Assembly (NCBI RefSeq): GCF_009931435.1 | Contig: NZ_CP043414.1 | Direction: 5' to 3' (one strand) | DNA from: Escherichia coli | GTDB taxonomy: Bacteria; Pseudomonadota; Gammaproteobacteria; Enterobacterales; Enterobacteriaceae | Length of the DNA stretch: 64,000 nucleotides | Part shown: positions 10,228-10,425 of the stretch, piece after piece | How the letters are laid out: each line of letters opens with the position of its first letter | Numbering within the stretch: the stretch's first letter is position 1 | Made by a program: the position numbers and the translations under genes | The notes under the pieces: model-generated | The model's database searches: none | Seen by the model: only the letters and a program-made list of their open reading frames with translations | Told to the model about the DNA's origin: nothing

Positions 10228-10425
10228 GGGCCGCGAAAGCGGCCCTTCAGATTATTGGCAAAGTGTGCGTTGTTCATGTCGGATGCGGCGTGAACGCCTT
10301 ATCCGACCTACAAGATCGTGCAAATTCAATATATTGCAGGAAGTATGTAAGCCTGATAAGCGTAGCGCATCAGGCAGTTTTGCCTTTGCCATCAGTCTCA
10401 AGGGCCGCGAAAGCGGCCCTTTTTT
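10228..10425. repeat. BIME (two inverted REP elements) between two copies of the tktA terminator hairpin
   Basis: gggccgcgaaagcggccc at 10228-10245 and 10402-10419; REP-like palindromes at about 10278-10312 and 10345-10376; T-run only after the second hairpin. Confidence 0.8.

Follow-up and report, generated by a model that had tools for sequence, protein, structure and literature searches.

BIME-1, the class of bacterial interspersed mosaic elements (BIMEs) also called RIP or RIB (Gilson, Bachellier and Hofnung; Oppenheim and Rudd; Boccard and Prentki), consists of a Y-type repetitive extragenic palindromic (REP) unit, an L linker with a site for integration host factor (IHF) and an inverted Z1-type REP. 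How REPs and BIMEs spread has been an open question for about 40 years: papers of 2012, 2021 and 2026 still call the mechanism unknown and look to RAYT, the REP-associated tyrosine transposase. The REPIN-RAYT systems (Bertels and Rainey; Nunvar; Ton-Hoang and Chandler) resemble BIME-1 in being non-autonomous, persistent inverted REP doublets that form a long hairpin; however, the models developed for them invoke single-stranded DNA and involve neither terminal inverted repeats nor target duplications, whereas the ends of BIME-1 match those of insertion sequences (ISs) of the DDE type. Target duplications are on record for the Yersinia YPAL elements (De Gregorio et al. 2006), which a 2007 review by Delihas lists as RU-2, with target duplications of 3-26 bp at targets that span or adjoin a dyad symmetry; the same review enters a 103-nt BIME-1 core without arms as 'RU-3' and gives its target duplication as '?'. 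Here we describe three BIME-1 copies in a 64,000-nt stretch of Escherichia coli DNA (contig NZ_CP043414.1, hereafter the window), chiefly the copy that follows tktA, which is bracketed by two copies of one terminator hairpin. With a probability of roughly 0.7, we read this hairpin pair as a target-site duplication that arose when a single terminator was hit by a 152-bp non-autonomous BIME-1, the ends of which are homologous to those of IS1668-type ISs of the IS1182 family. Target duplications in the IS1182 family span 0-60 bp in ISfinder, and many YPAL targets reportedly overlap rho-independent terminators.

The tktA (transketolase) coding sequence occupies positions 8184-10205 of the + strand (from the list of open reading frames, ORFs; the gene is named tkt in matching E. 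coli genomes), and its terminator is the presumed insertion target. The element begins 42 nt past the tktA stop codon, lies between convergent genes as a single extragenic unit at the 3' end of a transcription unit, and is bounded on the other side by a gene of the prohibitin/SPFH family (10424-11332, - strand; identified from the ORF list and matching genomes). As a preliminary description of this DNA had claimed, a hairpin with an 18-nt core (GGGCCGCGAAAGCGGCCC) occurs twice around an inverted REP pair, at 10228-10245 and 10402-10419, with 156 nt separating the copies. In full, the exact direct repeat measures 22 nt (AAGGGCCGCGAAAGCGGCCCTT; 10226-10247 and 10400-10421, 174 nt from start to start) and corresponds precisely to a 9-bp stem with its GAAA loop, with no extension in direct orientation past these 22 nt. 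The proximal copy (10226-10247, + strand) runs into CAGATT..., lacks a T tract and fails terminator scoring; the distal copy, which together with the original T tract occupies 10400-10427 (+ strand), is the only one followed by a T run (TTTTTT) and the only one that scores as terminator-like, in agreement with the earlier assignment of the T tract to the distal copy.

[quoted passage not shown] Similarity to its paralogues (e.g., the fepA-entD copy present in most E. coli genomes) covers query positions 88-240, equivalent to window 10247-10399, and thus begins and ends within one base of the element's borders. The mobile unit thus takes in outer arms on either side of the REPs, so that the REP/BIME insertion of the preliminary description needs refining: what moves is the full 152-bp BIME-1 and not just the REP pair. 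The arms form imperfect terminal inverted repeats (CAGATTGCTGACAAAG...TTTGTCATCAGTCTC). The left one (CAGATTATTGGCAAAGT, 10248-10264, + strand) can be aligned to the left end of IS1668-type ISs, of YPAL and of a REP-less element described below, and the right one (TTTGCCATCAGTCTC, 10385-10399, + strand) was delimited by the same kind of end alignment. The left end CAGATTGCTGACAAA and the reverse complement of the right end GAGACTGATGACAAA agree at 12 of 14 positions over their aligned part (AGATTGCTGACAAA vs AGACTGATGACAAA), and the arm consensus across BIME-1 copies (left arm CAGATTGCTGACAAAGTGCGC..., right arm ...GCGTTTGTCATCAGTCTC(A)) likewise consists of imperfect inverted repeats. Pattern searches place a Y-type REP, or palindromic unit, at 10278-10311 (+ strand; one of four in the window), the L linker at 10312-10350 (+ strand) and a Z1-type REP, inverted with respect to the Y REP, at 10351-10375 (+ strand), the composition that defines BIME-1. 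The linker contains the L motif GTGCAAATTCAATATATTGCAG exactly, and an IHF-like site at 10321-10337 (AAATTCAATATATTGCA), of which the predicted binding sequence ATTCAAtataTTG is one mismatch off the consensus WATCAANNNNTTR. The Rfam family ES036 (CssrF small RNA) matches the linker at 10312-10354 above its gathering score and the naRNA4 model matches the REPs (10223-10406) below its own; both 'small RNA' families appear to describe parts of the BIME-1 repeat. The tktA BIME-1 of strain lineage ST131 (L003) has lost 12 bp where the L linker meets the Z1 REP (window 10340-10351).

Alleles were counted in 5426 complete E. coli genomes, which contain a median of 15-16 BIME-1-matching places each. 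The junction between tktA and the prohibitin-family gene is present in 1791 of them, of which 1365 have the element and the remaining ~426 have shorter or empty forms. In TW10598 and strain 405, the empty tktA allele is exactly 174 bp shorter and displays one hairpin followed by the T tract. Single hairpins are also found in the empty fbaA-mscS alleles of MS 69-1 and EC24; at yhaH-yhaJ, where JNEC-KY203 is filled and has a perfect 22-nt repeat (AAGCACCTTGTAAAAGGTGCTT) and the empty CFT073 allele has one copy; and at ysgA-metE, which is filled in E. albertii and empty, with one hairpin, in E. coli HZ13. The filled form of the ysgA-metE site was found in none of 5425 E. coli genomes when matches were required to span 80% or more of the filled query. 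The expectation that strains lacking the BIME would show a single hairpin was thus borne out at four loci, and none of the alleles read was an empty site with two hairpins.

The other two BIME-1 copies of the window lie after fbaA and gcvP in the orientation opposite to the tktA copy, and the preliminary description was right that the pattern recurs at both. At gcvP, a perfect 20-nt stem-loop (AAAGGCGCTTCGGCGCCTTT) stands on both sides of a 153-bp element (48135-48287, - strand; from pattern searches and genome matches): the proximal hairpin (48115-48134, + strand) is without a T tract, and only the distal copy (48288-48307; 48288-48315 on the + strand with its T tract) is terminator-like. It is a rare allele (8 of 5426 genomes), and there was no plain empty allele among the gcvP alleles sampled; other strains hold a boxC-containing element or a different gene order. 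The gcvP-ygfF spacer of K-12 (L007, ~385-575) features such a boxC element with IS1668-type ends at the site taken by BIME-1 in the window (48115-48307), together with a second gcvP hairpin, now decayed (AAAGATACGTCAACGAATTA, 11/20), at the same position; one terminator is thus occupied by two different members of the family, depending on the strain. The fbaA site departs from this arrangement. Its direct repeat runs to ~35 nt and takes in the hairpin, the T tract and CGCCAAAAGCAA; the proximal repeat (24031-24068, + strand, with the hairpin at 24031-24051; repeat search and terminator scoring) and the distal repeat (24200-24235, + strand) differ at five positions, the latter being missing along with the element from MS 69-1 and EC24. 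The fbaA BIME-1 (24069-24199, - strand; pattern searches) has a right arm that is ~12-21 nt short. Here, unlike the tktA site, the T run is kept in both copies, and the terminator-like score belongs to the proximal copy only. A further REP cluster in the window, the BIME-2-like Z2-Y-Z2 array at 51741-51910, has neither IS1668-type arms nor a flanking direct repeat, which argues that the hairpin duplication is specific to BIME-1.

A scan for the L motif in one genome per species recovered 49 BIME-1 loci, from E. albertii, Pseudocitrobacter faecalis, a Pseudocitrobacter metagenome-assembled genome and a divergent 'E. coli' genome, and the three window copies bring the total to 52. Merging of orthologues left ~23 unique full-length copies, with the two full-length copies of the window counted in. 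Thirteen of these are flanked by a 17-25-nt direct repeat that constitutes a complete stem-loop and lies 0-1 nt from both termini, and four abut on 4-7-nt repeats where there is no hairpin (TGCTAT, AAGCC, (G)TATG and (A)TAT); five additional truncated copies also have hairpin repeats. The wider occurrence envisaged in the preliminary description hence extends to all three window copies and to 13 of the ~23 full-length ones, without being universal. The borders of the repeats coincide with the base of the stem to within one nucleotide, and the length of the duplication ranges from 4 to 35 nt across BIME-1 copies. The earlier proposal of insertion into a terminator stem with duplication of the hairpin is supported; however, it is the whole stem-loop that is duplicated on both sides, and the element does not lie in the stem. 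Hairpin loops are in direct orientation, as are stem asymmetries (L026) and non-palindromic sequences beyond or in place of hairpins, namely the T tract with CGCCAAAAGCAA at fbaA, TGCTAT at L044/L097 and AAGCC at L103. In a control with mismatched left and right flanks of other BIME-1 loci, none of 506 pairs reached a local-match score of 14, vs 9 of 23 observed pairs in a first pass, and the tktA pair scores 21. The loops of duplicated hairpins sometimes differ while the stems are the same, as in L026, L015 and the ST131 tktA copy L003 (TAAA vs TTTA, GAAA vs TTAC and AAAT vs GAAA); these look like small inversions of the hairpin loop after the duplication.

An autonomous counterpart with matching ends was found by searching all the sequence at hand for inverted terminus pairs, with the MITE-like spacings of 100-250 bp set apart. 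The one informative pair (L195) is 1596 bp apart; another pair, in L192, is 3.6 kb apart. The L195 pair encloses an IS that codes for a 479-aa transposase of the IS1182 family (NCBIfam NF033551, 494 bits against a cut-off of 270), with matches to the Pfam domains DUF772, DDE_Tnp_1 and DDE_Tnp_1_6; this IS has no REPs and is flanked by a duplicated stem-loop (AGCCACATAGTGGCT). Homologues of the transposase with 70-92% identity are found in Morganella, Serratia, Salmonella, E. coli, Pectobacterium and Klebsiella, and those of Y. enterocolitica are named 'transposase for IS1668'. At ten IS1668 places in Y. enterocolitica and in one E. coli copy, the IS is 1591-1595 bp long with the ends CAGACTGCTGACAAAGT...TTCGTCAGCAGTCTG, and every IS end adjoins a complete terminator-like stem-loop. 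The same 15-23-nt stem-loop stands on both sides of the IS at six independent sites, the L195 copy included; the remaining copies (about half; Y. enterocolitica L258-L267) have different hairpins to the left and right, as expected of rearrangements through recombination between IS copies. The Yersinia sites lie after tkt, fba, pta, luxS and crr, which are strong terminators of the same kind that BIME-1 occupies in E. coli. The IS ends resemble those of BIME-1 (CAGATTGCTGACAAAGT...TTTGTCATCAGTCTC) at 16 of 17 positions on the left (P ~3e-9) and 12 of 15 on the right (P ~1e-5), in a fixed register. In contrast to IS1668, BIME-1 is 152 bp long, has no transposase gene and holds a REP pair and an IHF site as its interior. 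As no ORF for an IS1182-family transposase is present in it, nor a tblastn match in the window, BIME-1 can only be a non-autonomous derivative and not a member IS of that family. A search of viral contigs for relatives of the IS returned the query itself only.

The same ends are displayed by several other small elements. The published RU-2 (YPAL) sequence starts with ttCAGACTGCTGACAAAC and ends with CACTTTGTCAATAACCTCA, its left end agreeing with the BIME-1 arm at 14 of 15 positions and its right end at 12 of 16; YPAL and BIME-1 are also alike in size (~168 vs 152 bp), in the right end TTTGTCA...CTCA and in the reported span of target duplications (3-26 bp, vs 4-35 nt here). The YPAL core, however, is unrelated, with one REP-like palindrome and no Y-L-Z1 order, and YPAL belongs to Yersinia and Erwinia, BIME-1 to Escherichia and Pseudocitrobacter; BIME-1 is thus not a YPAL, but a relative by its ends. 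A scan of viral contigs for the termini uncovered a 139-nt REP-less element (L148, positions 4383-4521 of IMG/VR UViG_2639763107_000001), which sits after a lipase gene and has a perfect IHF consensus at its center (AATCAATTCATTG). It is flanked by a duplicated hairpin (ACCGCCTTCGGGCGGTT) with the T tract on the distal copy only, which indicates that the duplication goes with the termini and not with the REPs. A BLAST search of the L148 region against phage sequences gave no match. BIME-1-type ends are found on the K-12 boxC element as well. The preliminary description could not say whether the mechanism had been described before; the phenomenon itself is on record for the related YPAL, with reported duplications of 3-26 bp at dyad symmetries, and an IS1182-family IS with matching ends behaves alike. 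The evidence supports the view that duplication of a stem-loop target is of a kind already known from IS1182-family elements and YPAL MITEs, and that BIME-1 is new to that kind in the accessible literature, with an earlier mention in print being possible: the accessible descriptions of BIME-1 give neither terminal inverted repeats nor target duplications, and a search for BIMEs with target duplications or terminators found nothing relevant in that literature, to which the BIME papers of the 1990s and the primary YPAL paper do not belong.

The simplest reading of these sequences is that BIME-1 is a MITE of the IS1668-type lineage and that the hairpin duplication would be the target-site duplication of its transposase. 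BIME-1 has the hallmarks of a MITE, being short, non-coding, dispersed in many copies and polymorphic for presence and absence, with terminal inverted repeats, a flanking duplication of which empty sites have one copy, and a cognate autonomous IS with matching ends; what ties it to the IS1668 type of the IS1182 family are ends typical of the family and a long, variable target duplication at stem-loops. We infer that an IS1668-type transposase moves BIME-1 in trans, and the likely agent is a transposase of the DDE type, cutting the stem-loop at its two bases, rather than the RAYT pathway. The length of the duplication follows the stem-loop and not a fixed stagger, which suggests strand transfers at both feet of an extruded stem-loop. 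In such a scheme, the terminator stem-loop may be extruded as a cruciform, with both feet adjacent in a four-way junction; the transposase would join each end of the element to one of the target strands, at one of the two bases of the stem-loop, and gap repair would copy the whole stem-loop onto both sides of the element. A 3' cut at the foot of the stem would leave the T tract with the distal copy. Given that position of the T tract, tktA transcripts should pass the weakened proximal hairpin, read through BIME-1 and end at the distal copy, at ~10427. Speculatively, the central IHF site, which is common to BIME-1 and the REP-less L148 element, might bend the short element so that its ends meet. 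The duplicated palindromic copies lengthen the stem of the element, which should in turn favor precise excision. More tentatively, and with odds that we put slightly short of even, BIME-1, YPAL, the boxC composite and the REP-less relatives may all be passengers in one IS1668-derived MITE frame, whose transposase recognizes extruded terminator stem-loops and cuts at both feet; the REP pair would then be cargo, RAYT would have no part in placing BIME-1, and the central IHF site, long without an explanation, would bend the element for synapsis of its ends. At CRISPR arrays, the strand transfers made by Cas1-Cas2 are staggered and fall at the two borders of a repeat that is partly palindromic, and gap filling then duplicates the whole repeat, with IHF in an architectural role in E. 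coli. The likeness is an analogy only, as the two cases are unrelated in enzyme, inserted DNA and locus specificity, and nothing here suggests Cas1.

Other origins of the paired hairpins have to be set against the target-site duplication. The established candidate for the spread of REPs and BIMEs is RAYT (TnpA-REP, a Y1 HUH transposase, the locus of which, yafL-fhiA, lies outside the window), and BIME-1 could be moved by it as single-stranded DNA, with the hairpin duplicated by replication or repair beside the folded terminator. The enzyme binds REPs, cleaves single-stranded DNA at CT up to several hundred nucleotides from a REP and recombines such sites in vitro. Against this, Y1 transposition of the IS200/IS605 type involves no terminal inverted repeats and no target duplication, both of which BIME-1 has; no single-strand route that copies the hairpin could be constructed; the same duplication surrounds the REP-less L148 element and a 1.6-kb REP-free IS that encodes a DDE transposase; and the BIME-2-like REP cluster of the window is without such flanks. 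We therefore consider a RAYT origin of the tktA arrangement improbable, while the RAYT model, which predicts neither terminal inverted repeats nor target duplications, may stand for other BIME classes. Still less probable is a duplication that followed insertion, in which a BIME-1 beside one terminator grew into a quasi-palindrome by intrastrand template switching. The element and its hairpins do form one long quasi-palindrome (arms of repeat I1 of 38 nt, 79% complementary), their RNA fold reaches -106 kcal/mol (z = -9.3) with the two hairpin copies paired to each other, and loops are flipped at L026 and L015. Template switching in a palindrome, however, yields an inverted copy, whereas the loops here are direct (GAAA/GAAA at tktA, and alike at gcvP and fbaA), as are the asymmetric stems of L026 and the non-palindromic flanks of fbaA (T tract and CGCCAAAAGCAA), L044/L097 and L103, and it leaves the identical behavior of the 1.6-kb IS unexplained; inverted duplication by palindrome growth was rejected on account of these directly repeated loops and flanks. 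Chance, or tandem terminators between which a BIME happened to fall, can be set aside almost completely: genes are commonly followed by palindromes rich in GC, and a short repeat in two copies is often a match by chance, but the repeats here are exact over 22/22 and 20/20 nt and sit right at the ends of the element, in several independent loci whose hairpin sequences differ. This explanation too was rejected, with none of the 506 control pairs being of that strength and the empty alleles having one hairpin.

A different matter is the polarity of the alleles. Direct repeats of 22 nt around a strong quasi-palindrome are a good substrate for precise excision, Tn10 and Tn5 being the classic case of RecA-independent precise excision from such repeats, so that some single-hairpin alleles may be secondary products of replication slippage between the hairpin copies across the palindrome. 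Filled tktA alleles occur in lineages 3-4% apart in their flanks, the empty alleles are no more distant and are the minority (~1365 filled, ~426 empty), and the fbaA empty allele carries exactly the variants of the proximal copy. We regard a secondary origin of these alleles as a real possibility, although the less probable one. Excision would alter the polarity at particular loci only, and not the origin of the duplication; at ysgA-metE, with E. albertii filled and no filled E. coli, one insertion is the simpler account; and the repeats of the rare gcvP allele are perfect, which is what a young insertion should show. Several observations nevertheless weigh against a target-site duplication by an IS1668-type transposase. 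The single-hairpin alleles could be precise excisions in place of pre-insertion states, and the flanks of the tktA site do not fix the root, the distances among the window, ST131 and the empty alleles being about equal. Six of the ~23 full-length BIME-1 copies, about a quarter, have no flanking repeat. The repeats reach beyond the stem-loop at fbaA (~35 nt) and at L048 (22-27 nt, including the T tract), so that a strict rule of cutting at the stem base does not hold. At the right end there is a difference in the final base or bases, with ...TCTC(A) in the MITEs vs ...TCTG in the IS; CT, the dinucleotide at which RAYT cleaves, lies 2-3 nt from the tip at each BIME-1 end; and published work assigns the spread of REPs and BIMEs to RAYT. 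Finally, there is no full-length IS1668-type copy in any of the 5426 complete E. coli genomes. Fragments are present in 351 of them, mostly on plasmids (e.g., beside espT on pZ1323PEC0008-2), and the E. coli plasmid copy L257 is truncated; any mobilization in E. coli must hence be rare, old or dependent on transient plasmid-borne copies.

Should BIME-1 prove to be a MITE of an IS1182-family element, its spread would become directly testable. The same relationship would account for its position just after genes with a terminator hairpin on both sides, and would give the IHF site a role. For annotation, and for 3' untranslated regions in particular, the insertion would remove the T tract from the proximal hairpin and shift the effective terminator ~170 nt downstream, by which the REP pair would become part of the mRNA. 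The transposase would be one whose duplication length is set by the structure of the target DNA and not by a fixed stagger.

The region 3' of tktA is polymorphic in E. coli beyond the presence or absence of BIME-1. The convergent gene of the prohibitin/SPFH family lies there in the 1791 genomes given above; K-12-like strains (L004, L132) have cmtB-cmtA there instead, with a different tktA terminator. Inside the prohibitin-family gene, a 33-nt periodic repeat occurs in three to four copies (window 10557-10675) and probably encodes an 11-residue repeat.

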